Source of the DNA: Smithellaceae bacterium
GTDB taxonomy: Bacteria > Desulfobacterota > Syntrophia > Syntrophales > Smithellaceae
Direction of reading: 5' to 3'
DNA length: 64,000 bases
NCBI GenBank assembly: GCA_963682015.1
Contig: OY820932.1
Span: 3,210,386 to 3,274,385, forward strand
Shown here: in pieces, positions 14,517 through 64,000 of the stretch
Layout of the letters: each line of letters opens with the position of its first letter
Position numbering within the stretch: the first letter of the stretch is position 1
Notes under the pieces: generated by a model
Databases searched by the model: none
Seen by the model: only the letters and a program-made list of their open reading frames with translations
Told to the model about the DNA's origin: nothing
Program-made: the position numbers and the translations under genes

Positions 14517-14583
14517 AGGATAAGATGAAACGGCTCTTTTTGCGAAGCCGTAGAAACCCTCTCAAAAATATGAGGAGACGCAT

Positions 14584-15300
14584 ATGTTACTGGAAGTAAA
14601 GAATCTAAACACTCACTATGGACCGAGCCACGTATTGCAGGGAATCAACCTGAGTATTGCGGACGGGGAGCTGGTGGCTCTTCTGGGAAGAAACGGGATG
14701 GGGAAGAGCACGACGTTGAAGAGCATCATGGGGATGGTGAAACCCACCTCCGGTTCCGTCATGTTTCAGGGGCAGGAGATTGCGGGTCTTCCTCCGTATA
14801 AGGTGGCCAGGGCAGGGATCGGCTATGTTCCCGAAGAGAGAAGAATCTTTCCGGAGCTGACCGTTTTGGACAATCTGCTTCTGGGGATTAAAGACGGGAA
14901 GGTCCGGAACCCGAACGATCCGAATACGTGGACGATCGAGCGGATTTTCCATCACTTTCCGAAGCTGGCGGAGCGGACGAATCAGGCGGGCGGACGACTC
15001 TCCGGCGGGGAGCAGCAGATGCTGTCGATCGGCCGGTCGCTGATGGGGAATCCGAAGTTATTGCTGGTGGATGAGCCGTCGGAGGGATTATCGCCGATCA
15101 TGGTGCAGGAAGTGCGCAACGTTCTGGCGGAGATCAACAAGGCCGGAGTGTCGGTGCTGCTGGTGGAGCATAACCTGAAGGTGGCTCTGTCCCTGGCGAA
15201 CCGGGTCTACCTGATGTCCAAGGCCTGCATCGGCTGCGAAGCCACCGCCACCGAAGTCAAAGACAACCATGAGCTCCGCGCTCAATATCTCGAAGCGTAA
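14584..15300 (+). CDS. livF: ABC transporter ATP-binding protein, LivF-like
   Basis: Walker A GRNGMGKST, signature LSGGEQQML, Walker B LLLVDEPS. Confidence 0.9.
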   Translation: MLLEVKNLNTHYGPSHVLQGINLSIADGELVALLGRNGMGKSTTLKSIMGMVKPTSGSVMFQGQEIAGLPPYKVARAGIGYVPEERRIFPELTVLDNLLLGIKDGKVRNPNDPNTWTIERIFHHFPKLAERTNQAGGRLSGGEQQMLSIGRSLMGNPKLLLVDEPSEGLSPIMVQEVRNVLAEINKAGVSVLLVEHNLKVALSLANRVYLMSKACIGCEATATEVKDNHELRAQYLEA

Positions 15301-15317
15301 CGCGTCGAGATATTTTC
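15284..15317 (+). terminator. Hairpin enclosing the livF stop codon (weak attenuator/terminator candidate, locus 1 only)
   Basis: AATATCTCGA (15284-15293) pairs perfectly with TCGAGATATT (15305-15314), and the inner GCG/CGC leaves TAA as the loop. TTTC follows. The right arm lies outside the repeat, so copy 2 lacks the hairpin. Confidence 0.4.
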
Positions 15318-23318: not shown

Positions 23319-23335
23319 TGTCCTTAAAAGGGACA
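23319..23335. promoter_or_regulatory. Upstream activator dyad TGTCC-N7-GGACA
   Basis: TGTCCTTAAAAGGGACA sits inside the longer inverted repeat GTCTTTTGTGTCC...GGACAAAAGAC (23311-23341). Its centre is about 125 bp from the -24 GG. Confidence 0.65.
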
Positions 23336-31984: not shown

Positions 31985-32175
31985 TCTTCCCTCCAGTAAG
32001 GCTAAGTTCACTTCTCCGGCCTCCACATTCCAAAGACCGCTTCATGCGCTAATCTCCCGATAATAGTGAATATTTCACTTTCTCATGACTGCTTCCGCAG
32101 CGGGGATCAAGCACTACCTGATACCAGTCATCACTTTCGGACAATAAGTGCTGACTGACTTAACGGAAGGGCATA

Positions 32176-32329: not shown

Positions 32330-32360
32330 GAATTTGTGTCCTATAATAGGACACAAATTC
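32330..32360. promoter_or_regulatory. Perfect 31-bp palindrome containing the TGTCC-N7-GGACA dyad (activator site, possibly also the esterase terminator)
   Basis: GAATTTGTGTCCTAT-A-ATAGGACACAAATTC. Its centre is about 156 bp from the porin -24 GG, and it overlaps the esterase stop codon (32359-32361) by 2 nt. A weaker half-matching site lies at 32283-32299. Confidence 0.7.
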
Positions 32361-34091: not shown

Positions 34092-34158
34092 AGTAACGCA
34101 ACTTTAGTTTTTTGCCAGGATCATCAAAGCATCAGAGCGAATTTTGTCAGGAGGAATA

Positions 34159-38331: not shown

Positions 38332-38360
38332 TATACCGATTCCCTGCCTGTTTGAAATCA

Positions 38361-38407
38361 TGTCCGATGTTGGGACGTTTTATGGTTTCATGTTCCCTTA
38401 TCGGACA
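38361..38407. promoter_or_regulatory. Two tandem activator dyads (TGTCC-GATGTTG-GGACg and TGTtC-CCTTATC-GGACA)
   Basis: Sites at 38361-38377 and 38391-38407 have centres 30 bp apart, about 156 and 126 bp upstream of the -24 GG at 38525. An A/T-rich tract (38455-38515) lies between the sites and the promoter. Confidence 0.65.
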
Positions 38408-45080: not shown

Positions 45081-45109
45081 AAAACCATACAGGGAAAGGA
45101 AGTATAAGA

Positions 45110-45982
45110 ATGGATCCTACCGTATCGATGTACATATCCCAGGGGATTCACGGGATAGCGTACGGGATGATATTGTTTTTGATTGCATCGGGATTGAACA
45201 TTATCTTTGGGATGATGGGGATTTTGAACATGGCCCACGCGGTGTTTTTCATGCTGGCGGCGTACATTTGTTACGCGGTGGTGGGGCTTACCGGGAGCTT
45301 CTGGGCGGGATTGCTGGTGGCTCCGTTGGTGACGGCGATGTTGGGCATCGTAATGGAGCGGGTGTTTTTGCGGACGGCGCACAAAGTGGGGCACTTTGGA
45401 GAACTGATTTTGACGATGGGCATCGGGAGCGTGATCGTGGCGGCCATCAAGAAGATCTGGGGGACGGAGAGCATGCCTCTGCAGGTACCGGATTTACTTC
45501 AGGGAATGGTGAACATTTTCGGGATATCCTACCCGATATACCGCCTGTTCGTGATCGGCCTGGCGCTGGTCATCCTGGTATTCATGATGCTGCTTTTGTA
45601 CCGGACGCGCCTGGGAAAGATCGTACGTGCGGCGGTGTCGGACCGGGACATGGTGAACGCTTTGGGGATCAACATCAATCTCGTGTTCATGTTCGTATTC
45701 GGAGTCGGCACATGGATGGCGGGAATCGCGGGTGTGGCCATTGCGCCGATTCTGACGGTGTTTCCGGGGCTGTCGGATCAGGTGGGGATGGACGCATTCA
45801 TCGTGGTGGTGACGGGCGGATTCGGGAGCCTGGCGGGGGCGTTTATCGTCTCGCTGATCTTCGGGCTTTTGAGCTCCTACGGCGTCCAGTTCGTGTCCCA
45901 GTTTGCGCCGGTTTTGATGGTGGTGTTCATGGCCATCGTCCTGGCGTTTCGCCCTAACGGACTATTTGGAGTGAAGGAATGA
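45110..45982 (+). CDS. livH: ABC transporter permease, LivH/HAAT family (identical to 11909-12781)
   Basis: Identical translation to copy 1. GGGAAAGGAAG RBS lies outside the repeat. Confidence 0.9.
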   Translation: MDPTVSMYISQGIHGIAYGMILFLIASGLNIIFGMMGILNMAHAVFFMLAAYICYAVVGLTGSFWAGLLVAPLVTAMLGIVMERVFLRTAHKVGHFGELILTMGIGSVIVAAIKKIWGTESMPLQVPDLLQGMVNIFGISYPIYRLFVIGLALVILVFMMLLLYRTRLGKIVRAAVSDRDMVNALGININLVFMFVFGVGTWMAGIAGVAIAPILTVFPGLSDQVGMDAFIVVVTGGFGSLAGAFIVSLIFGLLSSYGVQFVSQFAPVLMVVFMAIVLAFRPNGLFGVKE

Positions 45983-46971
45983 CGACCATGAACAATAAAG
46001 CAAAAAACATAATTTTGTGGCTGATACTGCTGGCCTTTCTGGCCTTTTTCCCCAAACTGTTCGGAGTGTACTACACGAACATGGTGGTAACCTTCGCGAT
46101 CTTCTCCGTATATGCTTTGTCGTTGAACATGCTGATGGGGTACACGGGACTGTTGAGTTTCGGACACGCCATGTTTTTCGGGTTTGGCGGCTACGGCACG
46201 GCGCTGGCATTGAAGCATATTGAAGGGATCGGGGTCTTTCCGGCCATCGGCATCGGCGTCCTGGCGGCGGCGGTCCTGGCCTTGATTTTGTGCCCCCTGG
46301 TGGTCCGGGTGAGCGGGACGGCATTCGCGATGCTGCATCTGGCGTTTGGACAACTGTTATACGTTCTGGCCCTGAAGTTATATCCGATTACGGGCGGAGA
46401 AGACGGGATCGCGAACTTTCCGGTACCGGGACTCTTTACCGAGAGCCTGAAGAGCTCCCCGGAACACATGTATTACCTGGCCATGATTGTCCTGGGATTC
46501 TGCGTCTGGCTGATGTGGTTTGTCACCAAGACCCCGTTTGGACAGATCCAGGTGGGGATCCGGGACAACGCCAAGAGAATCGACTACCTGGGCTACAAAG
46601 TGCCGCAGTCGAAAGCGGTGGTTTATACCCTGTCGGCGGTGTTTGCCGGCGTGGCGGGCTCCTTCTACGGCCTGTTCCACAACCTGGTATCGGCGGACGG
46701 CTCGCTGGGGATCGGGATGTCCTTTTCACCGATCGTCTGCATCATGATCGGAGGCGTGGGAAGCTTTTTCGGTCCGATGATGGGGACGGCGGTGTTTCAG
46801 CTCATCGACGAGTTGATCCTGCGGTACACGGAGAGCACGGAGCTGGTGATGGGCATCATCCTGGTTGCGGTGGTCATGTTTATGCCGATGGGCTTTACGG
46901 GATTGTTTAAGATGGGATGGTTGAAGGTAAAAGCCCGGTTTGCCCCGAAAGCGAAGGAGAAGGCGTCATGA
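45979..46971 (+). CDS. livM: ABC transporter permease, LivM/HAAT family (identical to 12778-13770)
   Basis: Identical translation to copy 1. Confidence 0.9.
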   Translation: MTTMNNKAKNIILWLILLAFLAFFPKLFGVYYTNMVVTFAIFSVYALSLNMLMGYTGLLSFGHAMFFGFGGYGTALALKHIEGIGVFPAIGIGVLAAAVLALILCPLVVRVSGTAFAMLHLAFGQLLYVLALKLYPITGGEDGIANFPVPGLFTESLKSSPEHMYYLAMIVLGFCVWLMWFVTKTPFGQIQVGIRDNAKRIDYLGYKVPQSKAVVYTLSAVFAGVAGSFYGLFHNLVSADGSLGIGMSFSPIVCIMIGGVGSFFGPMMGTAVFQLIDELILRYTESTELVMGIILVAVVMFMPMGFTGLFKMGWLKVKARFAPKAKEKAS

Positions 46972-47717
46972 ATAATATACTGGAGACAAAAGATTTAAAG
47001 CACAGTTTCGGTCCGTTGAGAGTGCTGTTCGGGGTGGACCTGCAGATTGCGGAAGGGGAGCGACACGCGGTGATCGGCCCCAACGGCGCGGGGAAGACGA
47101 CCTTGTTCAACACCATTACAGGGACATACCACCCGACCCACGGCAAGGTATTCTTCAAGGGGAATGACATTACGGGATTTCCGCCGCACAAGCTGGCGAG
47201 AATCGGGATCGGGCGTTCCTTTCAGATTACCAGTACCTTTACGTACCTGACGGCGTTTCAGAACATCCGCCTGGCGATTTTGTCGAAAGACGGGGTCCGG
47301 TTCAATCTGTTTCGGAAAGTGGACCGGATGGAGAAGCTGACGGAAGAGACCAACGCGATGCTCAAAAGGATCAACTTGTATGAAGACCGCAACGTGATGG
47401 CCTGCAACCTGTCGTACGGGAAGTCCAGAGCGCTGGAGATCAGCATGGCTCTGGCGACGGACCCGGAGCTGGTTCTGCTGGATGAGTTTGCGGCGGGGAT
47501 GTCGAAGGAAGAGACGGCCGACGCGGTAGCCCTGATCCGGAATCTGACCCAGGGGAAGACCGTGGTGCTCATCGAGCACGATATGGACGTGGTGTTCAAC
47601 CTGGCGGACCGGATCACCGTATTACATTACGGGAAGATCCTGGCGACGGGGAAGCCGGAAGAGATCCGGAACAATCAGGCTGTGAAAGACGCCTATCTGG
47701 GCGATCTGGAAGTATAA
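46968..47717 (+). CDS. livG: ABC transporter ATP-binding protein, LivG-like (identical to 13767-14516)
   Basis: Identical translation to copy 1. Confidence 0.9.
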   Translation: MNNILETKDLKHSFGPLRVLFGVDLQIAEGERHAVIGPNGAGKTTLFNTITGTYHPTHGKVFFKGNDITGFPPHKLARIGIGRSFQITSTFTYLTAFQNIRLAILSKDGVRFNLFRKVDRMEKLTEETNAMLKRINLYEDRNVMACNLSYGKSRALEISMALATDPELVLLDEFAAGMSKEETADAVALIRNLTQGKTVVLIEHDMDVVFNLADRITVLHYGKILATGKPEEIRNNQAVKDAYLGDLEV

Positions 47718-47784
47718 AGGATAAGATGAAACGGCTCTTTTTGCGAAGCCGTAGAAACCCTCTCAAAAATATGAGGAGACGCAT

Positions 47785-48501
47785 ATGTTACTGGAAGTAA
47801 AGAATCTAAACACTCACTATGGACCGAGCCACGTATTGCAGGGAATCAACCTGAGTATTGCGGACGGGGAGCTGGTGGCTCTTCTGGGAAGAAACGGGAT
47901 GGGGAAGAGCACGACGTTGAAGAGCATCATGGGGATGGTGAAACCCACCTCCGGTTCCGTCATGTTTCAGGGGCAGGAGATTGCGGGTCTTCCTCCGTAT
48001 AAGGTGGCCAGGGCAGGGATCGGCTATGTTCCCGAAGAGAGAAGAATCTTTCCGGAGCTGACCGTTTTGGACAATCTGCTTCTGGGGATTAAAGACGGGA
48101 AGGTCCGGAACCCGAACGATCCGAATACGTGGACGATCGAGCGGATTTTCCATCACTTTCCGAAGCTGGCGGAGCGGACGAATCAGGCGGGCGGACGACT
48201 CTCCGGCGGGGAGCAGCAGATGCTGTCGATCGGCCGGTCGCTGATGGGGAATCCGAAGTTATTGCTGGTGGATGAGCCGTCGGAGGGATTATCGCCGATC
48301 ATGGTGCAGGAAGTGCGCAACGTTCTGGCGGAGATCAACAAGGCCGGAGTGTCGGTGCTGCTGGTGGAGCATAACCTGAAGGTGGCTCTGTCCCTGGCGA
48401 ACCGGGTCTACCTGATGTCCAAGGCCTGCATCGGCTGCGAGGCCACCGCCACCGAAGTCAAAGACAACCATGAGCTCCGCGCTCAATATCTCGAAGCGTA
48501 A
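47785..48501 (+). CDS. livF: ABC transporter ATP-binding protein, LivF-like (identical protein to 14584-15300)
   Basis: Identical translation. One synonymous difference (GAG at 48439-48441 versus GAA at 15238-15240). Confidence 0.9.
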   Translation: MLLEVKNLNTHYGPSHVLQGINLSIADGELVALLGRNGMGKSTTLKSIMGMVKPTSGSVMFQGQEIAGLPPYKVARAGIGYVPEERRIFPELTVLDNLLLGIKDGKVRNPNDPNTWTIERIFHHFPKLAERTNQAGGRLSGGEQQMLSIGRSLMGNPKLLLVDEPSEGLSPIMVQEVRNVLAEINKAGVSVLLVEHNLKVALSLANRVYLMSKACIGCEATATEVKDNHELRAQYLEA

Positions 48502-48554
48502 CAGGAGAGACGGAGTCAGGGCGGCAGTCCGTTTGAGTAAAGGAGAAGAGATCA

Positions 48555-52970: not shown

Positions 52971-53798
52971 ATGTCAGAAGAAAAAAAATTTAACGATGTC
53001 GTGATCGAAAAAGTTGCCGACGGAAATTACGCGGTGGTTTCCATAAACCGGCCTGATAAGCTCAACTCCCTTTCCACCGACACCCTCCGGGAGATTTCAG
53101 AAGCTCTGGACATGCTGGCGGTTGATTCCGCTGTCCGTTGCGTGGTGCTGCGCGGAACCAGGAACTTCACCAAGAAGCCGGCATTCTCCGCGGGAGCGGA
53201 TCTGGCGGCGCCCATGCCCGGCGGCCTGAATTACACGGTTCCCGTGCACAACGATCTTTTCATGCAGATCAAGCATAAATATTATGATCTGATTGAAGCT
53301 TTCCCCAAACCGCTCATCGCGGCGGTGGACGGTTATGCATTTGGCGGCGGGTGCGAGCTGACGCTGGTATGCGATCTGGTGATCGCATCCAAACGCAGCG
53401 AGTTCGGATTCCCCGAAATCAAACGCGGTATTTTCCCGGCCAACGGCGGTACACAGAGAATGGTACAGCACATCGGCATGGCCAGAACCAAACTGATGAT
53501 TTATTCGGCCGCTAATTTTTCAGCGGAAAAGATGATGGAATGGGGATATGTGGCCGATGTGGTCGAAGTGGACAAATTCGAGGAAGAGGTCCACAAACTT
53601 GCTTCGATGATCGGCAAAGGCCCTACCACGTCCTACTATGTCATCAAGAAATGCATGAATTACGGAACGCAGGTTCCCCGGAATGTCGGCCTGGTCTTTG
53701 AACAGATGGCCTTCGGCCTCAATTCCACTTCGCCGGATGTCGTGGAAGGCGTCACAGCTTTTTTCAGCAAAAAGGCGCCCGACTTCAAGGGTTTTTAG
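52971..53798 (+). CDS. Enoyl-CoA hydratase/isomerase (crotonase) family protein
   Basis: ATG 52971 (MSEEKKFNDVVIEKV) follows AAGGAGAA. Crotonase motifs FSAGADL and AVDGYAFGGGCELTLVCD. Confidence 0.85.
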   Translation: MSEEKKFNDVVIEKVADGNYAVVSINRPDKLNSLSTDTLREISEALDMLAVDSAVRCVVLRGTRNFTKKPAFSAGADLAAPMPGGLNYTVPVHNDLFMQIKHKYYDLIEAFPKPLIAAVDGYAFGGGCELTLVCDLVIASKRSEFGFPEIKRGIFPANGGTQRMVQHIGMARTKLMIYSAANFSAEKMMEWGYVADVVEVDKFEEEVHKLASMIGKGPTTSYYVIKKCMNYGTQVPRNVGLVFEQMAFGLNSTSPDVVEGVTAFFSKKAPDFKGF

Positions 53799-53942
53799 TC
53801 CGGGGGTTCCCGCAAAGCCGAAAAGGGCGGGAGACGGGCTGAGATAAAAACACGGAATCATCCCGGGCAGTTTTTGAAATTGTCCGGGCTTTTCTTCTCT
53901 CAAAAAAAGGTTTGGCGGGAATGAAAAGTCACGAACGAGGTT

Positions 53943-55364
53943 ATGATGAAGCATTTCAGAAAAGAACAGGATTCCCTGGGTGTACGCGAAGTTCCCTCCA
54001 ACCGTTATTACGGTATACAAACCTTGCGGGCTCTGGAAAATTTTGACCTTACGGGTATTCCCGTCGGCAGATATCCGCAAATGGTCGTATCGCTGGCGAT
54101 GGTAAAGAAAGCCGCGGCCCTGACCAATCAGGATCTGGATTTATTGCCTGCGGAAATTGCCGCCGCGATTGTCCAGGCCTGTGACGAGATCATCGCAGGC
54201 AAACTGCATGAAGAGTTTGTTGTGGATGTCATCCAGGGCGGAGCCGGAACCTCCACCAACATGAATGCCAATGAGGTCATCGCCAACCGTGCGCTGGAAA
54301 TCCTGGGGCTGGAAAAGGGTCGTTACGACATGCTCCACCCTCTAAACCACGTTAATTTATCGCAGTCCACCAATGACGTGTATCCCACGTCCCTGCGCAT
54401 TACGCTCAGCCGTATGATGGACGATCTCATGCGTGAGATGGAAGTTCTGCATGCCGCTTTCCGGGAAAAATCTCTGGAGTTTGCGGATGTCATCAAAATC
54501 GGCCGTACACAGCTCCAGGATGCCGTGCCCATCACACTGGGACTGGAATTCGGCGCCTGGGCCACGATGGTGGGTGAAGACATCTGCAGAGTCGGCGAAG
54601 CACAGTCCCTCATCCGGGAAATCAATCTGGGCGCAACGGCCGTGGGCACGGGACTGAATTCACATCCGGATTACGCCAAAACCGTTACCTCCAGACTCCG
54701 TGATCTGAGCGGAGTTCCCGTGGTCATGTCCGTCAATCTGCTGGAAGCCACTCAGGACGCAGGCGCGTATGTGCAGCTCTCCGGCGTGCTGAAAAGGATT
54801 GCGGTGAAGCTGTCCAAGATATGCAACGATCTGCGTTTGCTTTCATCCGGTCCGCGGGCCGGATTCAATGAAATCAACCTTCCGCCCATGGCTCCCGGAT
54901 CGACCATCATGCCGGGTAAAGTCAATCCGATTATTCCGGAAGTTGTCAATCAGATCGCCTTTGAAGTGATGGGGGCCGATCTGACCGTCTCCGTGGCGGC
55001 GGAAGCCGGACAGCTGGAACTCAATGCCATGGAGCCGATCATTGCTTACAAACTGTTTACGTCCCTTGACCTGCTGGGGCGCGCCTGCCGTGTGCTGGCC
55101 CAGCGATGTGTAAAAGGGATAACCGCAAACCGGGAAGTCTGTCGCCGCATGGTGGAAAACAGTGCAAGTCTTGCGACCGCTCTGAATCCTGTTTTGGGAT
55201 ACGAAAAATCTGCCGCAATTGCACATGAGGCCATTGCCGCGGGAAAAACCGTTTATCAGATTGTTCTCCAGAACGGGTACTTGAGCAAAGCTGACCTGGA
55301 TGAACTCCTTTCCCCGGAAAACATGACCCGTCCCGGATCGATCTCCAGAAAGGCCGGCTTATAA
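53943..55364 (+). CDS. aspA: Aspartate ammonia-lyase (aspartase/fumarase class II superfamily, AspA-like)
   Basis: Shows EQDSLGVREVPSNRYYGIQTLRALENF, QGGAGTSTNMNANEV and the signature GSTIMPGKVNPIIPEVVNQ. The N-terminal and NP..PEV blocks resemble AspA more than FumC. Confidence 0.75.
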   Translation: MMKHFRKEQDSLGVREVPSNRYYGIQTLRALENFDLTGIPVGRYPQMVVSLAMVKKAAALTNQDLDLLPAEIAAAIVQACDEIIAGKLHEEFVVDVIQGGAGTSTNMNANEVIANRALEILGLEKGRYDMLHPLNHVNLSQSTNDVYPTSLRITLSRMMDDLMREMEVLHAAFREKSLEFADVIKIGRTQLQDAVPITLGLEFGAWATMVGEDICRVGEAQSLIREINLGATAVGTGLNSHPDYAKTVTSRLRDLSGVPVVMSVNLLEATQDAGAYVQLSGVLKRIAVKLSKICNDLRLLSSGPRAGFNEINLPPMAPGSTIMPGKVNPIIPEVVNQIAFEVMGADLTVSVAAEAGQLELNAMEPIIAYKLFTSLDLLGRACRVLAQRCVKGITANREVCRRMVENSASLATALNPVLGYEKSAAIAHEAIAAGKTVYQIVLQNGYLSKADLDELLSPENMTRPGSISRKAGL

Positions 55365-56399
55365 ATAGCGAGTCAAAGACTCCCGGATATGACCATCCCT
55401 GCCAACGGTTCTTTCGGCCGTGATCATGGAATTCAAAACTGCCTCTTCTGAGCATTCGGCAACCGCCTGGAAAACGGTATCCAGACATTCCTCGTCAAGC
55501 ATCTTGATATCGATGACGCCCCGCTTTTCGTAATGCTTGATTCTTTGGGCCGTGGAAAAGGCAAGTACAATCTCTCCGCTTCCGGTCGCTATATCATTGC
55601 CTGTCCTGGCAACTCCGACTTCCGCTCTCCTTGCGATCCTTTTCAACTGGCGGCTGGTCATGGGAAGATCCGTGGCAATGATCATGATGAGAGAACCTTT
55701 GTCCGCTGAAGGTTTGCCTTCTTTCTGATTTGCGGCAATTTCCGCTCCCGCCTTCCGACCTGCTACCGTTAAATTCTCCAGTTTGCCCATATTGGTCAGC
55801 ACCAGCATTCCGACCATGTAGTTCTTTCCGCCTATCCGGATCAGTCTGGAAGCTGAACCGATTCCTCCTTTGAGTTTATAACAGGACATACCCGTTCCTG
55901 CGCCGACGGCGCCTTCCGGAAAGTCCGCAGCCGCGTTTTCAATGGCGGAGTCTATATCGCTGCTGCCGACATGCATTCCCCGGATATCATTCAAATAGGA
56001 ATCGTTGCATTCGAATACCACCGGGTTGACTGTCCCTGTTTTGTCTCCGATATCCGTATTTTGAGCGAGCATGTACTGAATGATACCATTGATCGCCGTT
56101 CCGACCCCGAATGTATTGGTCAGCAGAACGGGGGTTTCCAGTGTTCCCAGTTCATCGACCTGAATCAGGCCGGCGCTTTTCCCGAAGCCGTTGATGACAT
56201 GGACGGCCGCGATCAATTTTTCCTGAAAAGTATTCCCGCTGTGAGGAATGAGGGCTGTGACGCCGGTATTTACATCCCCTTTTTTTATGGTGGCGTGGCC
56301 CACCCGCACCCCTTCGACATCGGTGATTGCATTTCGTTGTCCCGTCGGCAGTTTGCCGATCACGATACCAAAATCCCTTATCCTTCTTTGTTCCAGCAC
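55359..56399 (-). CDS. DmpA/BapA-type (peptidase S58, P1 family) aminopeptidase
   Basis: N-terminal RIRDFGIVIGKLPTGQRNAITDVEGVRVGHATI...NTGVTALIP is typical of L-aminopeptidase/D-esterase DmpA-like Ntn hydrolases. Confidence 0.8.
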   Translation of the reverse strand: MLEQRRIRDFGIVIGKLPTGQRNAITDVEGVRVGHATIKKGDVNTGVTALIPHSGNTFQEKLIAAVHVINGFGKSAGLIQVDELGTLETPVLLTNTFGVGTAINGIIQYMLAQNTDIGDKTGTVNPVVFECNDSYLNDIRGMHVGSSDIDSAIENAAADFPEGAVGAGTGMSCYKLKGGIGSASRLIRIGGKNYMVGMLVLTNMGKLENLTVAGRKAGAEIAANQKEGKPSADKGSLIMIIATDLPMTSRQLKRIARRAEVGVARTGNDIATGSGEIVLAFSTAQRIKHYEKRGVIDIKMLDEECLDTVFQAVAECSEEAVLNSMITAERTVGRDGHIRESLTRYL

Positions 56400-56413
56400 A
56401 ACCTATCCTTTAC

Positions 56414-57844
56414 TTAGAGATCGTTCAGATCGGGTTTTTCTTTTGTCGGTTTCCCATCCGGTCCGACATAAACTCTTCCCCATCCCGTGAAAATTGCCGC
56501 AAACATTACGATGAACAGCATCCAGGCGTAAAATACCCAGGGCGTGATGGAAAGAGGGCTCAAAAACGGCACTCCGGCAAAGTCCTGACTGGCCTGCTTG
56601 GATAGCCCGCTGGCAAACAAAACACCCACGGACCATGGAACGGAGTAAACAAGGGTGCAGGCAAAGGTGTCCACAATCACGGCTCTTCTGTAGGGGTGAA
56701 GTTTGAATTTCTCGCCCAGCGGTTTGGAAAAAGACAAGCCGACGGCCAGGATCGCCGGCGCGTTAATGCTCATCAGCGCGGAAAAAATCAATTCCAGAAA
56801 CGCCGAGGCAAGCTCAAAACCGACGATGGATTTTCTGACAACTTTGCGGCCGAAAGCGACCAGGGCGTCCCCGCCGCCGCCGTCCAGCATGACCTGTATG
56901 CCGGCGGAAAGAAGAATCACCAGAATCGACAGATCCGCCATCCAGCCGGAAACCCCTTTCAATATAGCGCCGTCCGTCACGGAAAAAATTCCCGAAAATG
57001 TATTCAGTCCCGTGATCAGGGCGAAAACAATGCTTGATGCAATTCCCAGGATCAGCGCAAAGATGATGTTCGTGGTTTTAATCGCAGAGTAGATGGTAAT
57101 CGCGGCAGGAATAAACATGACCAGCCCCACGGGATTCATGTGTTTGGCGAGCGTCTCATAGGGAACGGCGGCCGTGGATCCTTTAAAGAAGTAGCCGAGA
57201 ATGAGCATCAGCACAATGGCAAGTCCCGCCGACGTCAGACCAAATCTTGCTCTCGTCTTGACAACGCCTCCAACATCGGTGTCCTGACTGGTTGCCGATG
57301 CGATGGTCGTATCGGATATCGCCGCCATATTGTCCCCGAATGCTCCGCCGCCGATAATCGCGCCGGCCAGGAGCAACGGATGCGCTCCCAGCAGCACACC
57401 CGCCGGATAAAGAACCGCCATGCCGGCCGCAATGGTTCCGAATCCGGTTCCGGCTGCCGTTCCAAATGTGGCGCAGGCGATGAAGGTAACCACGGCAAAC
57501 ATCGTGCCGCTCGCGCCGGTCTTCATGGCCAGCCACAACAGACCGTCCACCATTCCCGATGATCTCATGACGGATGCAAAGATGCCCGCAAAAATCCAAG
57601 CGGCCACCGGCATCAGTGCGACTTTCGCGGACATCCCCTTGATGATGGTCAGCCCGTACAGTTCTTTGTCCCTGGCCAGGAAAAAAGTAATGATAATACC
57701 CGTCAGAATGCCGATCCACATGGCCTGGATCGTCACTTCTTTCATGGTGAAAGCGATGACCACCGCAACGATGACGAATGTGATTATCGGAACAAAAGAT
57801 GAAAAAGCTGATCCGTATAAGGTGAGTTTCTTTTCCTGCTCCAT
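56414..57844 (-). CDS. NhaC-family (Na+/H+ antiporter-like) polytopic transporter
   Basis: 476 aa, about 12 TM helices. Family resemblance only; substrate unknown. Confidence 0.6.
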   Translation of the reverse strand: MEQEKKLTLYGSAFSSFVPIITFVIVAVVIAFTMKEVTIQAMWIGILTGIIITFFLARDKELYGLTIIKGMSAKVALMPVAAWIFAGIFASVMRSSGMVDGLLWLAMKTGASGTMFAVVTFIACATFGTAAGTGFGTIAAGMAVLYPAGVLLGAHPLLLAGAIIGGGAFGDNMAAISDTTIASATSQDTDVGGVVKTRARFGLTSAGLAIVLMLILGYFFKGSTAAVPYETLAKHMNPVGLVMFIPAAITIYSAIKTTNIIFALILGIASSIVFALITGLNTFSGIFSVTDGAILKGVSGWMADLSILVILLSAGIQVMLDGGGGDALVAFGRKVVRKSIVGFELASAFLELIFSALMSINAPAILAVGLSFSKPLGEKFKLHPYRRAVIVDTFACTLVYSVPWSVGVLFASGLSKQASQDFAGVPFLSPLSITPWVFYAWMLFIVMFAAIFTGWGRVYVGPDGKPTKEKPDLNDL

Positions 57845-57941
57845 TGAAAAACCTCCAGTGTTTCTACTGAATCTCTAGCTGGCAATCCATGCATCCGGAT
57901 TTTCTGCCTGCGCAATCTATCCACGCGGTTACCGGTTATCC

Positions 57942-58649
57942 TCAACGGGCTTCCTCAACGGCTCGTTCCGCCAGCAGGGCAAGAGGGTCGATGACCGGGA
58001 CGGACAGATCGCCGTCTGCCAGTACCAGCGGTATCTCCGTGCAGCCAGCGATGATTGCCTGCGCACCGCGGCGGATCAAGGTTTCAGCCGCTTCACGGAT
58101 AAGTGTTTTTGAGGCGGCGGAAGGTCCGTCGGCCTTGACGCTGTATATCGCTTTCATAATGTTTGATATCTGTATATCCTTGGCGGGAGTAATCAGCTCC
58201 AAGCTTGCGGCGTCGCACGCCTCATTGAAAAGACCGGATTGGATCGTACCGGAGGTTGCCAGTAAACCGATTTTCCGGATGCCGGGATACTGAACGACCG
58301 CATGATTAATGGTTTCCTTTACAACGTGCAGGATGGGCGTCGATATCTGTTCCTGCAGTCTTGAATGGAAAAAGTGGGCGGTTACACAGGGAATAACGAT
58401 AAAATCAACGTGCGCCGTTAAAAGAAGCTTCGCGCTTTCCACCATCATCGGCAGGGGATCCGTGCCGTTTTCCAGGATGGCCCTGGTTCTGTCGGGAATT
58501 TTGGGGTTGTTCACAATAACGATGCGGGGATGATCCTGATCGTCTGCAACCTTTGCCGCTTTTACGATTTTATCGAAAAGGTTGACAGTCGCTGCGGGGC
58601 CCATCCCACCAAGAATTCCGATTGTTTTCCTGTAGTGCATTATCGACAA
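57942..58649 (-). CDS. Aspartate racemase (Asp/Glu/hydantoin racemase family)
   Basis: Shows IGILGGMGPAATVNLF plus two catalytic Cys contexts, IVIPCVTAHFF and IAGCTEIPLV. Confidence 0.8.
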   Translation of the reverse strand: MSIMHYRKTIGILGGMGPAATVNLFDKIVKAAKVADDQDHPRIVIVNNPKIPDRTRAILENGTDPLPMMVESAKLLLTAHVDFIVIPCVTAHFFHSRLQEQISTPILHVVKETINHAVVQYPGIRKIGLLATSGTIQSGLFNEACDAASLELITPAKDIQISNIMKAIYSVKADGPSAASKTLIREAAETLIRRGAQAIIAGCTEIPLVLADGDLSVPVIDPLALLAERAVEEAR

Positions 58650-59040
58650 TTCGCTTGTGCCGTATCTTGTTGCTGAAATTTTGTCTCTTTTTGAGCCACA
58701 GTATACGGCATGCCCCCTTCATTGTTTAATCCGACCCTCTGTTTCATTTTCTGTGCCAGCAGGCAGGCCGGGGGAAAATGATGGTATTTAGTTGATTGTA
58801 TTTGGTATTTTATTAATAGTTGTTTTTTTATGAGATTAAAGTCCGATTGTTTGTGTCCTTTTTTGGTACACTGCTCGTTTGGCAAATGCGTTTTTTGTGC
58901 AAAGCAATGTCTTATGTTGGGACATATAACAACGGAAAAATATCTCTCCGTATGCCGTTCCCCTTCATATAGCGGATGCTGCGACGGATAAAAATTCATA
59001 TGTTATCTCATCAGCCTGTGCTCTGATGTGTCAGATCGCG

Positions 59041-59057
59041 TGTCCCATTATTGAACA
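59041..59057. promoter_or_regulatory. Activator dyad (TGTCC-N7-GaACA) upstream of the D-aminoacylase operon
   Basis: TGTCCCATTATTGAACA, with its centre about 158 bp from the -24 GG at 59207. Weaker sites lie at 58908-58924 (TGTCt-TATGTTG-GGACA) and 58854-58870 (TGTCC-TTTTTTG-GtACA). Confidence 0.5.
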
Positions 59058-59205
59058 CTTCAAGTATCGAAAGCCTTTTCCAGTCAGTAAAAATTTTTGA
59101 ATTATGGAGAACCCGATTGTCTGATGAATTGTAAATGAATAAAGATATTACTGAAATCGATCTACGAAAAATCCTGCAACGGAATCAGTGAATGGAACAC
59201 TTTTC

Positions 59206-59220
59206 TGGCATAAAAAGTGC
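59206..59220 (+). promoter_or_regulatory. sigma-54 (-24/-12) promoter of the D-aminoacylase operon
   Basis: TGGCAT-AAAAA-GTGC, 64 nt before ATG 59284. Confidence 0.65.
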
Positions 59221-59283
59221 CGTATACATACAGGTTTATAAAAAGTCTCTGATAAACAAATACAAGCGGGAGGACTGAAGAAA

Positions 59284-60969
59284 ATGACTTGCAAAAGCCA
59301 GGACAAGCAAACGGATGTCACCAGGAGAACCTTTTTGAAGCAGACGGCAAAAGCGGCCGCCACGCTTAGTGTGGCGGGGAGCCTGCCTTTTTTCACTACG
59401 GTAACCGCATCCGCCTCGTCCGACCGGGATTTCGATATCCTGATCAAGGGCGGAACAATTTACGATGGTACACTGAAAAAGCCCCGGGTGGCCGATATCG
59501 CCATCAAAGGTGACCGGATCGTTGCCATCGGTAATCTGGCGAAAGCACAGGCGGTAAAAATCATCGACGCCAGAGGTCTTGCAGTGACTCCCGGGTTTAT
59601 CGATGTCCATACCCATTCCGACATGGCCTTCCAGATCATGAATCCCAAGTATTTCTCCAAAGCTTCACCCATGCTGAAAGGGAACTACAATTACATATAC
59701 CAGGGCGTCACCACGGTGGTAACGGGCAATTGTGGAATGGGAATTCCCAGAACTGATCAGTGGTTCGACATGGTCAAGGCGCTGAATTTCGGGACGAATG
59801 CGGCCCATCTGGCGCCTCACGGGGCAATCCGCGCGGAACTTCTCGGCACCGACCAGCCGGTGGAATTGACGTCGGCCCAGCTCGAAGCGATGAAAAAGCG
59901 GATTGCCGAAGAAATGGAAAAGGGTGCTGTCGGTCTTTCGACGGGGTTGGAGTATGCTCCGGGGCTGTTATCGACGACCGGTGAATTGATCGAACTCGCC
60001 AGGGTGACGGCCCGCATGGGAAGAATCTTTACGACTCATATGCGCGATGAAAGCGGTACCATTGGTCCGGATGGTGTGCCGGCGGTCGTTCATTCCCTGG
60101 AAGAGGCCATCGAAATCGGCAAAAAGGCCGGCATTTCCGTTGAAGTCTCGCATTTTAAAATCGCGGCGCCGACGAACAAAACCCCGGCGTCACGAATTCT
60201 GGGCATGATCGAAAAAGCGCGCCGCGAAGGCGTCGATATCAGCGCCGATCAGTATCCGTATAACGCCGGGTCCACCTATATCACCGCCCTGATTCCGAAA
60301 AAATTCCAGGGAAACGACTACGGCGTCAAACCCGAATTCAAGACGCCGGAGGGGCGTCGCGCCATTAAAGAAGCCATTGAAAAGACTTTTACCTACCTGC
60401 CTCCGGAAAAAGTGCTCATCGCCTTTGCCTGGGGCTACAAGCAGTTTGAGGGAAAAACGCTCACGGAAATAGGAGAAATGGAGGGCAAGAGCCCGTCGGA
60501 AGCCTATGTGGATCTGGTCTGCCAGAAGGTGTGTCCAACGGGTGTATTCTTTTCTCAGGACATGCCGGTTGTAGAGGAGATCCTGAAGCAGGAGACGGTG
60601 ATTACCGCATCGGACGGCGGGACGTTCATGATCGGCATGCTCAAGCCGCATCCGCGATGTTACGCAACGTATCCCCGTAAACTCCGTATGGTCGCCCTCG
60701 ACAATCAATGGATGAGCGTCGAGAAAGCCATCCGCACGATGACATCTCTGCCCGCCGAGAAATTTCGCATCAAAAACCGCGGAAAAATCGAAAAGGGATA
60801 TTTTGCCGATGTCGCGCTCATCGACCTGGCAAACTTCAGGGATACCGCGACCTACCTCGATCCGCATCAGTATGCCACAGGGGTGAAGCACCTGCTGGTA
60901 AACGGTGTTTGGGGGATTGCGGACGGCAAAGCCACCGGTCAGGGCGGCGGCGTGGCGCTGAAGAGCTGA
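59284..60969 (+). CDS. N-acyl-D-amino-acid deacylase (D-aminoacylase) family amidohydrolase, Tat-exported, paralogue 1
   Basis: Twin-arginine signal TRRTFLKQTAKAAATLSVAG. Shows DILIKGGTIYDG, PGFIDVHTHSD, GLSTGLEYAPG, HMRDE, VSHFK and ADQYPYNAGST. Confidence 0.85.
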   Translation: MTCKSQDKQTDVTRRTFLKQTAKAAATLSVAGSLPFFTTVTASASSDRDFDILIKGGTIYDGTLKKPRVADIAIKGDRIVAIGNLAKAQAVKIIDARGLAVTPGFIDVHTHSDMAFQIMNPKYFSKASPMLKGNYNYIYQGVTTVVTGNCGMGIPRTDQWFDMVKALNFGTNAAHLAPHGAIRAELLGTDQPVELTSAQLEAMKKRIAEEMEKGAVGLSTGLEYAPGLLSTTGELIELARVTARMGRIFTTHMRDESGTIGPDGVPAVVHSLEEAIEIGKKAGISVEVSHFKIAAPTNKTPASRILGMIEKARREGVDISADQYPYNAGSTYITALIPKKFQGNDYGVKPEFKTPEGRRAIKEAIEKTFTYLPPEKVLIAFAWGYKQFEGKTLTEIGEMEGKSPSEAYVDLVCQKVCPTGVFFSQDMPVVEEILKQETVITASDGGTFMIGMLKPHPRCYATYPRKLRMVALDNQWMSVEKAIRTMTSLPAEKFRIKNRGKIEKGYFADVALIDLANFRDTATYLDPHQYATGVKHLLVNGVWGIADGKATGQGGGVALKS

Positions 60970-61056
60970 AGGAAGTTTAAATGGAAGTTAAAAGGCGCCT
61001 GTTTGTTTAAATGGAACAAGAAGAGTGAATCACCTGATGGTTAAGGATGTTCATTC

Positions 61057-62742
61057 ATGAAGGATGAAAATCAGGAAAAGAGAATGAACATCAACAGAAG
61101 AACGTTTTTAAGACAATCGGCCAGAACGGCCGCGGCGTTAACCGCAGCGGGAAGCCTGCCTTTTTTTCACTCGATAACGGCATCCGCTTCGTCGGACCGT
61201 GCTTTCGACATCCTGATCAGAGGAGGAACCGTTTATGACGGAACCCTGAAGGCGCCTGTGGTTGCCGACATCGGCATTAAAAGCGACCGGATTGCCGCCA
61301 TTGGAAGTCTGGCAAAAGCGCAGGCAGTGAAGGTCATTGATGCGCGAGGCCTTGCGGTCACTCCGGGTTTTATCGATGTTCATACCCACTGTGACATGAG
61401 CTTTCAGGCTATGAATCCCGATGATCTTTCCGGTGCACCGCCGGAGTTCAGAGGCAACCTCAACTATGCTTACCAGGGCGTTACGACGGTGATCACGGGC
61501 AATTGCGGTCTGGGGATTCCCAGCACCGATCAATGGTTGGATGTTGTAAAGAAGATTTCCTTCGGGACCAATGTTGCGCACTTGGCGCCCCATGGGGAAA
61601 TCCGCGCAAAACTTTTCGGCGTCCATCAACCCGCCGAATTAACGCCGGCGCAGTTGGAAACTTTTCTGCGAAGAATGACCGAGGAACTGGAGAACGGCGC
61701 GATCGGTTTTTCGACGGGCCTGGAATATGCCCCGGGGTTTTTTTCCGGCACCCGTGAGCTCATCGAGCTCGCCAGGGCAACGGCCCGCAGGGGAAAAGTC
61801 TACGTGACGCATGTGCGCAATGAAACGGGCGCCGTCGGCCGGGAGGGCAAGCCGGCGGTTGTCTCCGCTCTGGAAGAGGCCGTGCTGATCGGCAAAAAGG
61901 CCGGCATTCCCGTGGAAGTGTCCCACCTGAAGGTTATGGCTCCCAATAACACCATTCCGGCATCCATGATTCTGGATGTCGTCGAGAAGGCCAGGGGCGA
62001 AGGACTGGACATCCATGCCGATCAGTATCCTTACGATGCCGGTTCCACTTATATCACCCACCTGATTCCCGACAAGTTCAAAGCCAATGACCAGAGTCTC
62101 AAAAACGAATTCCGAACGGAAAAGGGATTTCTGGAAATCCGCAAGGCGCTGGAAGCCACTTTTTCCTGCCTGCCCGCGGGAAAAATTCTCATCGCCAATT
62201 ACCCGGCAAAGCCTGAACTGGAGGGAAAGACCGTTGCCGAAATCGCCCGCATCCGGGGGAAATCCCCTGCGGACTGCTATGTGGATATGGTCTGCGAACC
62301 GGTATGTCCCATGGGCATTTTCTTTGCGCAGAACATGAACATCGTCAGGGAAATCATGAAGCGGGACGATATCCTCACTGCATCGGACGGGGAGACATAC
62401 GCAAAGGGTGTGTTTAAACCTCACCCCAGAGTTTACGGCGCATTTCCACGTAAGCTCCGCATGGTTGCCCTGGACAGTAAATGGATGACGGTTCAGGCGG
62501 CCATTCGCACCATGACATCGCTGCCCGCTGAAAAATTCCATCTTAAAAGCAGAGGGAAAATCGAAGAAGGATTTTTTGCCGACATCGCTGTCATCGATCT
62601 GGCCAGTTTCAGGGATGTTGCAACCTATCTCGATCCACATCAGTATGCCCAAGGCGTCAGACACCTGCTGATCAACGGCGTTGTCGCCATTACGGATGGT
62701 GTGGCGACCGGCGCTGGCGGCGGCGTGGCCTTGAAATTCTAA
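61057..62742 (+). CDS. N-acyl-D-amino-acid deacylase family amidohydrolase, Tat-exported, paralogue 2
   Basis: Twin-arginine signal NRRTFLRQSARTAAALTAAG. Same 561-aa length and motif set (PGFIDVHTHCD, HVRNE, VSHLK, ADQYPYDAGST). Confidence 0.85.
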   Translation: MKDENQEKRMNINRRTFLRQSARTAAALTAAGSLPFFHSITASASSDRAFDILIRGGTVYDGTLKAPVVADIGIKSDRIAAIGSLAKAQAVKVIDARGLAVTPGFIDVHTHCDMSFQAMNPDDLSGAPPEFRGNLNYAYQGVTTVITGNCGLGIPSTDQWLDVVKKISFGTNVAHLAPHGEIRAKLFGVHQPAELTPAQLETFLRRMTEELENGAIGFSTGLEYAPGFFSGTRELIELARATARRGKVYVTHVRNETGAVGREGKPAVVSALEEAVLIGKKAGIPVEVSHLKVMAPNNTIPASMILDVVEKARGEGLDIHADQYPYDAGSTYITHLIPDKFKANDQSLKNEFRTEKGFLEIRKALEATFSCLPAGKILIANYPAKPELEGKTVAEIARIRGKSPADCYVDMVCEPVCPMGIFFAQNMNIVREIMKRDDILTASDGETYAKGVFKPHPRVYGAFPRKLRMVALDSKWMTVQAAIRTMTSLPAEKFHLKSRGKIEEGFFADIAVIDLASFRDVATYLDPHQYAQGVRHLLINGVVAITDGVATGAGGGVALKF

Positions 62743-62771
62743 ATTTTGAATAACACGGAATTGGAGGTAAA

Positions 62772-63683
62772 ATGAAACGCATTGCAGCATTATCGGTCGT
62801 CGGATTTTTATTTGCGTATTTGCTCGTTGCTTCTTCAGCATCGGCCTGCACCATATTTTCAATCAGCTACGGTCAAAAGGTGTTTTTCGCGGGGAACGAA
62901 GACCAGAGGCCGCAAAACAGCGCCTCCTGGCTGTTCGTGGATAAAAGAGGCCCTCTCGGCGTTGTGTATTTTGCGACGCCCTGGGAAAAATGGCCCATTG
63001 TGATGGAGGCGGGCATTAATGAGAAGGGGTTATGTTACGATCAAAACTGGATACCGGCGGAGAAGCTCAACAGTCATCCGGAAAAGATTCTGGCAAAAGA
63101 CCATCCATCCTGGCAGATGATGAGGGAGTGCGCAAGCGTTGAAGAAGTCATAGCGTCATACCGGAAATACAACTGGGGCGGTCACTGGGGCGGCATCATC
63201 GATTTTCAGATCCACTTTGCGGATAAGACGGGTGATGCGGTCATTTTATATCCCGGCAGTGATGGCGAGATGACTCATATCCGGAAACCCGTAAAGAACA
63301 GTTATCTGGTTTCCTCCAACTTCAACGTCCGACTGGTGCAGGAAGGAGACTTTTCCAGAAGCATGTCCTGGGTGGGCTGGGACCGGTATAACACGGCCGA
63401 CAGGATGCTGGCCCGGATAAAATCGGAAAAAGACCTGACTGTAAAAACAGTGGCCGCCGTTCTGGACGCAGCCCATCAGTCCGATGGCTCCCGTTCCTCG
63501 ACGATCTACTCCGAACTCTATGATCCGCAGAATCTGCGCATCTATTTATTTTACAATTCCCGGTTCGACACCGCCTATGTTCTGGATGTTGCTACCGAGC
63601 TGGCAAAAACCAAAGGCAGTTTCCGTCGGGTTCCTCTTAAGGACCTGATTCTGGATAAAGATATCGTGAAAGAGAAAATATAG
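62772..63683 (+). CDS. Exported Cys-Ntn hydrolase (linear amide C-N hydrolase, choloylglycine-hydrolase/C45-like)
   Basis: Signal peptide ...LLVASSASA followed directly by CTIFS, so Cys would become residue 1 after cleavage, as in Ntn hydrolases. Confidence 0.55.
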   Translation: MKRIAALSVVGFLFAYLLVASSASACTIFSISYGQKVFFAGNEDQRPQNSASWLFVDKRGPLGVVYFATPWEKWPIVMEAGINEKGLCYDQNWIPAEKLNSHPEKILAKDHPSWQMMRECASVEEVIASYRKYNWGGHWGGIIDFQIHFADKTGDAVILYPGSDGEMTHIRKPVKNSYLVSSNFNVRLVQEGDFSRSMSWVGWDRYNTADRMLARIKSEKDLTVKTVAAVLDAAHQSDGSRSSTIYSELYDPQNLRIYLFYNSRFDTAYVLDVATELAKTKGSFRRVPLKDLILDKDIVKEKI

Positions 63684-63695
63684 AGGAGGTAAGAA

Positions 63696-64000
63696 ATGAA
63701 AAGGACTTGTTCATTAACGTTAGGTGTTTTCCTGATTGTTTTTTTATTGCCTTATGCGGTACTGGGCCAGACGCAACGCACTTATAAATTCCCCGATGCC
63801 GAAGCCACCGATCCCGTGAAACTGGGCTGGATGACCGGTTTTCCGCCGCCGCCCGAAAAATGTGTGAGGATGTTCAATCTCAGTCATTACCACTTTCCCC
63901 GGACACGATGGTCGTTTTCCCACTGGCGTGAATTGCTGCCCACGAAAAATGTTTTCCGAGGAACCGGTGCCGTTTCACCTCTGAAAGCCCGGTTGAAGGA
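63696..64000 (+). CDS. Exported protein, probable beta-lactamase-fold serine hydrolase (N-terminal fragment, runs off window)
   Basis: GAGGAGG RBS and signal peptide MKRTCSLTLGVFLIVFLLPYAVLG, with no stop codon to nt 64000. FPRTRWSFSHWRELLPTKNVFRG resembles the N-terminal block of NylB/D-aminopeptidase-like serine hydrolases. Not in the ORF track because it lacks a stop. Confidence 0.45.
   Translation, partial: MKRTCSLTLGVFLIVFLLPYAVLGQTQRTYKFPDAEATDPVKLGWMTGFPPPPEKCVRMFNLSHYHFPRTRWSFSHWRELLPTKNVFRGTGAVSPLKARLK

Follow-up and report, generated by a model that had tools for sequence, protein, structure and literature searches.

A putative sigma-54-controlled island for the breakdown of D-amino-acid conjugates in uncultured Smithellaceae

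Introduction

What might bring exported amide hydrolases, a protein of the aspartate racemase family and an aspartate ammonia-lyase together in the genome of an uncultured anaerobe? The question is raised by a 64,000-nucleotide stretch of contig OY820932.1 (here called the window) from a Smithellaceae bacterium of the order Syntrophales, in which eight neighboring genes had been described as a route leading from D-amino-acid conjugates in the periplasm to fumarate. Their products are two D-aminoacylase-family deacylases with signals for twin-arginine translocation (Tat), a Cys-type N-terminal nucleophile (Ntn) hydrolase, a beta-lactamase-fold (S12) serine hydrolase, an NhaC-family transporter, an S58 peptidase, a racemase, and an aspartase encoded by aspA. 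Profile, structure and motif matches and, for the S12 hydrolase, identity to orthologues bear out the positions and families that this preliminary description assigned to all eight genes, and likewise the export signals of the hydrolases and the cytoplasmic placing of the remaining enzymes.

In our reading, to which we give a probability of about 0.5, the region would be one arm of a sigma-54-controlled catabolic island, whose exported enzymes would hydrolyze D-amino-acid conjugates, with D-aspartate being converted to fumarate and the acyl part being oxidized. The argument builds on families, export signals, catalytic residues, synteny and conserved regulatory motifs, from which we infer substrates, flux direction and co-expression. 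Related loci come from metagenome contigs or metagenome-assembled genomes (MAGs), above all the sister loci L001/L084 (one contig), L005 and L085. The nearest genome is a Smithellaceae MAG, in which the transporter is 95% identical.

Results

Exported deacylases with an intact alpha-carboxylate site

Both deacylases carry the twin-arginine motif (T)RRTFL[KR] and have an ASA↓S cleavage site; a twin-arginine motif is also present in 94/120 of the closest homologues. Their metal and catalytic motifs (DVHTH, GNCG, THxR[DN]E, VSH[FL]K, and ASDG) align to 1M7J. Both proteins also have YPY and PHPR motifs (residues 324 and 455), the Tyr and Arg of which are the alpha-carboxylate (c-site) residues of D-acylases (PMC12149444). 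Their conservation implies an amino acid as the leaving group. It is this intact site, together with the family and the export signals, that points to a cleavage step in the periplasm.

Characterized D-aminoacylase structures fall into the same amidohydrolase subgroup (226 and 189 bits), and the window enzymes keep the HxH motif, bridging Cys, two His, catalytic Asp and YPY/Arg alpha-carboxylate site of these proteins. Unlike them, they are ~561 rather than ~480 aa long, carry a Tat signal and a ~33-residue insertion at the r-site, and are encoded in one operon with Ntn and S12 hydrolases. The insertion follows YPYxAGSTYI, takes in the r-site position and is unaligned to the structures; in D-acylases, the side-chain determinant is Leu298 (A. 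faecalis) or Arg295 (the Bordetella N-acyl-D-Glu deacylase Bb3285) (PMC12149444). The insertion is also where the two paralogues, which form two orthologue groups, differ strongly. Genomes with the racemase-aspA pair carry both deacylase types and locus L086 type 1 only, a weak hint that the second type might go with the aspartate branch.

Two other identities were considered for the deacylases. The metal-dependent bile salt hydrolases reported in 2026 form a different Amidohydro_3 subgroup resembling NfdA (N-substituted formamide deformylase) (PMC13081988); this identity was rejected, as the matches are D-aminoacylases and no NfdA-like or 3ICJ structure was among the hits. The carbohydrate de-N-acetylase OngB (PDB 9KB1) is not favored, being a weaker match (157 bits), with chitin-oxidation genes absent.

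Acyl-chain genes next to the deacylases

According to the preliminary description, the released acyl groups would feed the adjacent uptake and CoA-transferase/beta-oxidation genes. Indeed, the same genes stand directly upstream in the sister genomes, and two further loci lend support. In L086, a deacylase homologue (71% identical) is preceded by genes for a sigma-54 activator, a carboxylesterase and beta-oxidation, and is followed by Ntn hydrolase and beta-lactamase-fold genes. In L087, a homologue with a Tat motif (61% identical) lies inside a beta-oxidation-type operon, together with genes for a short-chain dehydrogenase/reductase (SDR), an enoyl-CoA hydratase, a thiolase, a LIV-type ATP-binding cassette (ABC) transporter, a CoA ligase and an acyl-CoA dehydrogenase. 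Judged by gene order, acyl-chain uptake and oxidation is the steady partner of the exported deacylases.

A racemase coupled to an aspartase

The best solved structure for the racemase is the aspartate racemase of P. horikoshii (1JFL, 195 bits), and both catalytic Cys motifs, PCVTAH and GCTE, are present. The protein scores 208 bits with the asp_race model TIGR00035 (cut-off 93), below its best NCBIfam equivalog, the cysteate racemase model NF052483 (CuyB). CuyB, too, belongs to the aspartate racemase family, and it is partnered with the sulfo-lyase CuyA; the parts of the CuyB study consulted report no test on aspartate (PMC11193023). Beyond family and model score, the likeness to the CuyB-CuyA system of Bilophila wadsworthia extends to an adjoining transporter gene. 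In contrast to that system, neither the window region nor the loci of the relatives yielded a CuyA-type sulfo-lyase; in those loci the neighbor is aspA, and no CuyA-like cluster emerged among 80 metagenomic loci with racemase relatives. Because CuyA is absent and the partner lyase is an aspartase, we favor an aspartate racemase, cysteate being an alternative candidate substrate.

The lyase had been proposed to be an aspartase and not a fumarase, and this holds. The aspA product passes the equivalog model TIGR00839 (686.7 bits, cut-off 681.2) as well as PRK12273 (726 bits, cut-off 510), fails the fumarase models (fumC/fumC_II, 475 bits, cut-off 665) and carries the SS-loop GSTIMPGKVN.

Gene order in relatives strengthens the proposed D-aspartate branch. 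The racemase gene adjoins aspA in L084 and L085, and in L005 the two form one operon with an overlap of 4 bp; among the 80 metagenomic loci the two closest racemase relatives (85% and 66% identity) also adjoin aspA. In the same set, relatives at ≤59% identity lack an adjacent aspA, and the commonest neighbor is an SDF-type (acidic-amino-acid-type) transporter (18/80 loci). A marine isolate has been shown to grow on D-aspartate by means of a catabolic aspartate racemase (PMC6965332); like that enzyme and P. horikoshii AspR, the racemase of the window is of the two-Cys type independent of pyridoxal phosphate (PLP), and conversion of D- to L-aspartate would again be the catabolic entry. The present system differs in that the racemase of the window and its relatives is genetically coupled to an aspartase and to exported amide hydrolases, in an anaerobic syntroph.

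The window itself departs from the order of its relatives. For the NhaC-S58-aspA block, L005 has the order of L085, opposite in orientation to the window, where a 3.9-kb segment is inverted relative to L085; this inversion is why the relatives have racemase and aspA side by side on the same strand. In the window, by itself, the racemase gene heads an operon with NhaC and S58, and aspA stands alone, directly behind a terminator-like hairpin that is also kept in L085. Co-expression of aspA with the other genes, part of the earlier proposal, thereby loses ground in the window genome. The inversion exchanges which genes follow the sigma-54 promoter and which follow the hairpin. No inverted repeats were found at its breakpoints.

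Predicted D-serine genes in the sister genomes

In the sister loci, genes for a CoA-transferase, an SDR and an enoyl-CoA hydratase are followed by NhaC, S58, aspA and the racemase gene, and then by the deacylase operon. L084 has an insertion between S58 and aspA, comprising genes for a MalT-like regulator, an S15 hydrolase and the second deacylase; the annotated start of the latter is too short, and the upstream sequence MNRRSFLKK restores its Tat motif. The deacylase operon of L084 and L085 comprises one or more deacylase genes, the Ntn hydrolase gene, a dCache chemoreceptor gene (in varying position) and one or two beta-lactamase-fold genes. Genes for an SDR, a permease of the GntP family, a PALP enzyme and a further chemoreceptor follow, to which L085 adds an M20 amidohydrolase.

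Two NCBIfam equivalog models identify the PALP enzyme of L085 as a D-serine ammonia-lyase, DsdA (644 bits, cut-off 246; 631 bits, cut-off 368). The L085 permease scores highest with the model for the D-serine transporter DsdX (454 bits, under its 618-bit cut-off), and L084 has a GntP-PALP pair at the same position. This adjacency of permease and PALP genes recalls dsdXA of E. coli, with the difference that here the pair lies downstream of an exported hydrolase operon; the window ends before that point. The DsdX-like permease and dsdA provide independent support for a D-amino-acid theme, one wider than D-aspartate. Taken with the racemase-aspA coupling, evidence from the sister genomes supports both this predicted theme and a branch from D-aspartate via L-aspartate to fumarate.

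The dCache_1 methyl-accepting chemoreceptor gene, which lies within the relatives' deacylase operon (L085, 8154-9914; L084, 12890-14650; L005, 17083-18843), has no counterpart in the window. A search of its product for the customary amino-acid-binding motif gave only the near match KRPFW.

How conserved, then, is the cluster? The island as such is kept in the sister genomes; its order is rearranged, and its modules are separable elsewhere. An obligatory linkage of the modules is not supported, as the deacylase-Ntn-beta-lactamase trio of L086 has neither racemase nor aspA beside it. Still, the clustering outlives an inversion and insertions, which argues for a functional link between the modules.

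Predicted promoters and dyads between the divergent operons

Sigma-54-type sites of the form TGGCAY-N6-TG occur 13 times in the window, against 4.6 expected; 13 was reached by no shuffle. Promoters of this type point away from each other in the intergenic region between the racemase and deacylase operons (Table 1), and further sites precede the thiolase/beta-oxidation operon (38524) and the genes for the S15 hydrolase (34076) and the carboxylesterase (34003). Allowing ≤1 mismatch to the consensus TGTCC-N7-GGACA, we also located intergenic dyads at 23319, 24131, 32337, 38361, 38391, 58854, 58908 and 59041; the last three fall in a 204-bp stretch of the racemase/deacylase intergenic region. An intergenic alignment shows the two divergent promoters and two of the dyads to be conserved in four genomes, and the statement that the deacylase operon carries the promoter and dyad of the regulon is thus correct as a sequence fact. 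The obvious candidate for the regulator is a GAF-PAS sigma-54 activator encoded at 36298-38361. The remaining, extra dyad lies in ~130 bp (58880-59035) that are absent from three relatives.

A conserved hairpin is predicted in the racemase leader, and the decamer TGCCGTATAC is common to this hairpin and the deacylase promoter, where it comes after the -12 element (59218). Rfam gave no match in 53000-64000 at E ≤ 1, so no riboswitch was found. An open reading frame of 119 aa at 58640-58999 on the minus strand has no family match and overlaps the conserved promoter/dyad region; it is probably not a gene.

Table 1. Coordinates of genes and regulatory elements in the window
Feature	Position	Strand	Basis or remark
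Terminator-like hairpin, 12 bp stem, T-rich tail	53862-53888	+	Between enoyl-CoA hydratase gene and aspA
Inverted segment aspA-S58-NhaC, 3.9 kb	53934-57862	.	blastn versus L085
Aspartate ammonia-lyase (aspA), 473 aa	53943-55364	+	TIGR00839, SS-loop
Cytoplasmic self-processing Ntn aminopeptidase S58 (DmpA/BapA-type), 346 aa	55359-56399	-	Pfam, 2DRH, 1B65
NhaC-family (IT superfamily) secondary transporter, 476 aa	56414-57844	-	PF03553
PLP-independent two-Cys racemase, aspartate racemase family, 235 aa	57942-58649	-	1JFL match, Cys motifs
Conserved hairpin TGCCGTAT...ATACGGCA, predicted racemase leader	58658-58710	-	Folding z = -2.0
Sigma-54-type promoter TGGCACAGAAAATG towards racemase operon	58745-58758	-	-24/-12 match
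Dyad TGTCC-N7-GGTACA, putative enhancer-binding-protein site	58854-58870	.	Sequence match
Dyad TGTCT-N7-GGACA	58908-58924	.	In ~130-bp stretch missing from relatives
Dyad TGTCC-N7-GAACA	59041-59057	.	Perfect GTGTCC-N7-GGACAC in L085, L005
Sigma-54-type promoter TGGCATAAAAAGTGC towards deacylase operon	59206-59220	+	Core near-invariant in four genomes
D-aminoacylase-family metallo-amidohydrolase 1, Tat-exported, 561 aa	59284-60969	+	Motifs, profiles
D-aminoacylase-family metallo-amidohydrolase 2, Tat-exported, 561 aa	61057-62742	+	65% identical to copy 1
Exported Cys-Ntn hydrolase, penicillin V acylase/bile salt hydrolase fold, 303 aa	62772-63683	+	Structure model
5' end of exported S12/beta-lactamase-fold serine hydrolase, 101 codons, truncated by window end	63696-64000	+	Orthologue identity

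The two further exported hydrolases

A structure model of the Ntn hydrolase, built with 35 homologues (mean predicted local distance difference test, pLDDT, 89.9), matches penicillin V acylase/bile salt hydrolase (PVA/BSH) structures with a Foldseek probability of 1.0. Profile scores are weak, with 24.3 for AAT (cut-off 23.2) and 37 for C45_proenzyme (cut-off 85). The signal peptide ends at ASA↓C; a near-invariant Cys26-Thr27 stands directly behind it, and signal-peptide cleavage would expose Cys26 as the N-terminal nucleophile. Such a cleavage-exposed N-terminal Cys and the alpha-beta-beta-alpha fold are shared with PVA/BSH enzymes, including the periplasmic PVA of Pectobacterium (4WL2); in contrast to these, the window protein is only 13-17% identical to them and is placed by Pfam, weakly, in AAT/C45 and not in CBAH.

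For the beta-lactamase-fold protein, of which the window holds 101 residues, no Pfam match was obtained for this fragment. Three related genomes encode, at the same position, 438-aa PF00144 proteins with an SVTK motif, and the fragment shows 68-79% identity to their N-termini.

NhaC and S58 as a separate module

The transporter belongs to the NhaC family as described earlier (PF03553, 45 bits, cut-off 23), but it is no orthologue of the NhaC antiporter, staying far under the equivalog TIGR00931 (37 bits, cut-off 370). Among 80 genomes with its subfamily, the neighbors include a sigma-54 response regulator (34/80), a sensor kinase with an SBP_bac_3 domain of amino-acid type (30/80) and an OrtB-like PLP enzyme (24/80). 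An aspartate-racemase-like gene is found in five Marinomonas loci. D-aspartate as the substrate, as proposed in the preliminary description, is thus not supported: the subfamily's neighbors in 24-34/80 genomes are sigma-54 two-component and OrtB-like genes, not aspartate genes. The protein probably imports an amino acid or a small derivative or amide.

The S58 product scores 398 bits with Pfam Peptidase_S58, 386 bits with PDB 2DRH and 224 bits with DmpA (1B65); its KG↓SLIMIIATD sequence aligns with the Gly249↓Ser250 autoprocessing site of DmpA, and no signal peptide was found in it. It shares the fold family and Gly↓Ser self-processing site of DmpA (Ochrobactrum anthropi) and BapA. In contrast to these enzymes, its nearest solved relative is the uncharacterized P. 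horikoshii protein PH0078 (2DRH), and its gene is paired with that of an NhaC-family transporter. Firmicutes loci with NhaC and S58 also hold an OrtB-like gene. By gene neighborhood, the NhaC-S58 pair is a separate conserved module with differing partners in other phyla, and the two proteins probably import a small amino-acid derivative and remove an N-terminal D- or beta-aminoacyl group from it.

Independently of the window, the association of NhaC with the sigma-54 response regulator, the SBP_bac_3 sensor kinase and OrtA/OrtB-like (2-amino-4-ketopentanoate thiolase-like) genes forms a conserved module of its own (loci L004, L009, and L012-L060; 24-34/80 genomes). Its hosts are mostly amino-acid-fermenting Firmicutes and a Spirochaete, and the remaining genes of the ornithine pathway are absent.

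Other genes of the window

Two more hydrolase genes stand behind their own sigma-54-type promoters, one (34144-36168) for an S15 (X-Pro dipeptidyl-peptidase/CocE-type) hydrolase with a lipoprotein-like signal and the other (32359-33924) for a cytoplasmic type-B carboxylesterase; both genes probably belong to the same regulon. The carboxylesterase gene is followed downstream by a minus-strand gene (30533-32026) for a 497-aa protein with no Pfam match, before which lies a perfect TGTCC-N7-GGACA dyad (32337-32353). A signal peptide, richness in beta-strands and a C-terminal Phe make this product a probable outer-membrane channel. L086 has a 461-aa gene, also without Pfam match, at the corresponding position.

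Two paralogous uptake/CoA-transferase operons share a 3.4-kb duplication (11894-15301 and 45094-48502) of 99.85% identity that spans their ABC permease and ATPase genes, whereas the flanking CoA-transferase and binding-protein genes are 68-72% identical; this difference suggests a recent gene conversion or duplication. Finally, an NDP-hexose 2,3-dehydratase gene (5410-6699; 456 bits) indicates a deoxysugar biosynthesis cluster unrelated to the island.

Discussion

Several observations weigh against reading the locus as one arm of an island for D-amino-acid conjugates. Since the position of Leu298/Arg295 falls within the ~33-residue insertion, a preference for acidic substrates is unreadable. 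The racemase passes the cysteate racemase equivalog NF052483 with 240 bits (cut-off 190). In the window, the inversion parts aspA from the racemase promoter and places it after a terminator-like hairpin. No racemase, aspA, NhaC or S58 gene was found within 10 kb of the L086 deacylase trio, and the trio itself is specific to the lineage and confined to close relatives, because distant Ntn hydrolase homologues (≤50% identity) do not adjoin deacylase or beta-lactamase genes. Lastly, the NhaC subfamily is mostly linked to OrtA/OrtB-like and sigma-54 two-component genes, with S58 adjacent in only 5/80 loci, and a part for S58 in a D-aspartate route, as had been proposed, is not evident.

Could these be independent modules that are merely co-located under one regulator? 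The hydrolases and beta-oxidation enzymes would then degrade an acyl-amide or ester without a D-amino acid, racemase and aspartase would use free environmental D-aspartate, and NhaC-S58 would serve an unrelated small amide. Such an arrangement would account for a hydrolase trio without aspartate genes, for the L087 deacylase homologue in a CoA-ligase/beta-oxidation operon, for the occurrence of the NhaC-S58 pair in unrelated contexts and for the shuffling of modules by inversion and insertion. It fits poorly with YPY and PHPR motifs that imply an amino-acid leaving group, with dyads that are common to divergent operons and kept in four genomes, and with clustering that persists through rearrangements. 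We consider it unlikely.

The preliminary description had favored a narrow version, in which the island is dedicated to N-acyl-D-aspartate, with deacylation in the periplasm and then D-aspartate import by NhaC, racemization and aspartase. The racemase-aspartase coupling in relatives agrees with this version, as do the N-acyl-D-aspartate deacylases among the D-aminoacylase family (PMC12149444) and the presence of both deacylase types in genomes with racemase-aspA, L086 having only type 1 and no such pair nearby. Nevertheless, we regard so narrow a specialization as quite unlikely: there is no sequence sign of an acidic side-chain pocket, the relatives' DsdX-like permease and dsdA indicate more than one D-amino acid, the neighbors of the NhaC subfamily do not indicate aspartate, and the S58, Ntn and S12 hydrolases would be left without a role.

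Alternatively, the island might degrade non-ribosomal lipopeptides, antibiotics or bile-acid-type amidates, for detoxification as well as carbon, with its hydrolases acting as D-stereospecific peptidase, acylase and esterases. The genes for S12, the PVA/BSH-fold acylase, the D-aminoacylases, the carboxylesterase, S15, the beta-barrel protein and beta-oxidation share promoter/dyad motifs, which would suit such a function. We find it improbable, however, since it is the assortment of families alone that suggests it, the metal-dependent bile salt hydrolases belong to the different Amidohydro_3 subgroup mentioned above, and the host is an environmental syntroph. Sulfonate metabolism with a CuyB-type cysteate racemase is, despite the higher CuyB score, very improbable for a racemase gene that is coupled to an aspartase gene in loci devoid of CuyA, the more so as CuyB itself belongs to the aspartate racemase family.

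Returning to the breakdown of D-amino-acid conjugates, we envisage the following course. Conjugates would enter the periplasm, perhaps via the beta-barrel protein encoded at 30533-32026. There, the two Tat-exported zinc deacylases, the Cys-Ntn amidase and the S12 hydrolase would attack amide bonds in conjugates with an internal or terminal D-amino acid, freeing fatty or other acyl groups and D-amino acids or small peptides. N-acyl-D-amino acids, L-Xaa-D-Xaa peptides, and lipopeptide or cell-wall debris are the candidate substrates. As synteny suggests, the acyl part would be taken up by the LIV-type ABC system, activated by the CoA-transferase and subjected to beta-oxidation. D-aspartate would be racemized to L-aspartate, from which the aspartase would yield fumarate and ammonium, a branch predicted from the enzyme families and the operon coupling seen in relatives. 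In the sister genomes, D-serine would also be handled, by the DsdX-like permease and DsdA, and NhaC-S58 may take up a small D- or beta-aminoacyl compound and trim it.

A broader scenario, which we put forward tentatively and consider unlikely, has the syntroph salvaging D- and beta-linked residues of aged proteins, peptidoglycan and lipopeptide debris. The exported hydrolases would free C-terminal or N-acylated D-residues, S58 would trim N-terminal D- or beta-(iso)aspartyl groups in the cell, and D-aspartate would be converted to fumarate and D-serine to pyruvate. If this were true, fumarate from the amino-acid part could serve the beta-oxidation of the acyl part as an internal electron sink, making the conjugates fermentable without a hydrogen-consuming partner, and a first defined physiological role would be assigned to D-aminoacylases.

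For decades, D-aminoacylases have served to resolve D-amino acids and, to our knowledge, the characterized ones are intracellular. A review of D-acylases says little on their natural substrates and cellular role (PMC12149444). In the literature, we found no paper tying D-aminoacylases to Smithellaceae and none on exported D-aminoacylase-like enzymes clustered with a racemase-aspartase pair or with dsdA. The island is a new combination of parts from known families, so far confined to one family of uncultured anaerobes. Being conserved, predicted to be co-regulated, and located beside racemase-aspartase and beta-oxidation genes, it offers a concrete physiological context for D-aminoacylase-like enzymes, with a bearing on the recycling of D-amino acids by uncultured anaerobes.

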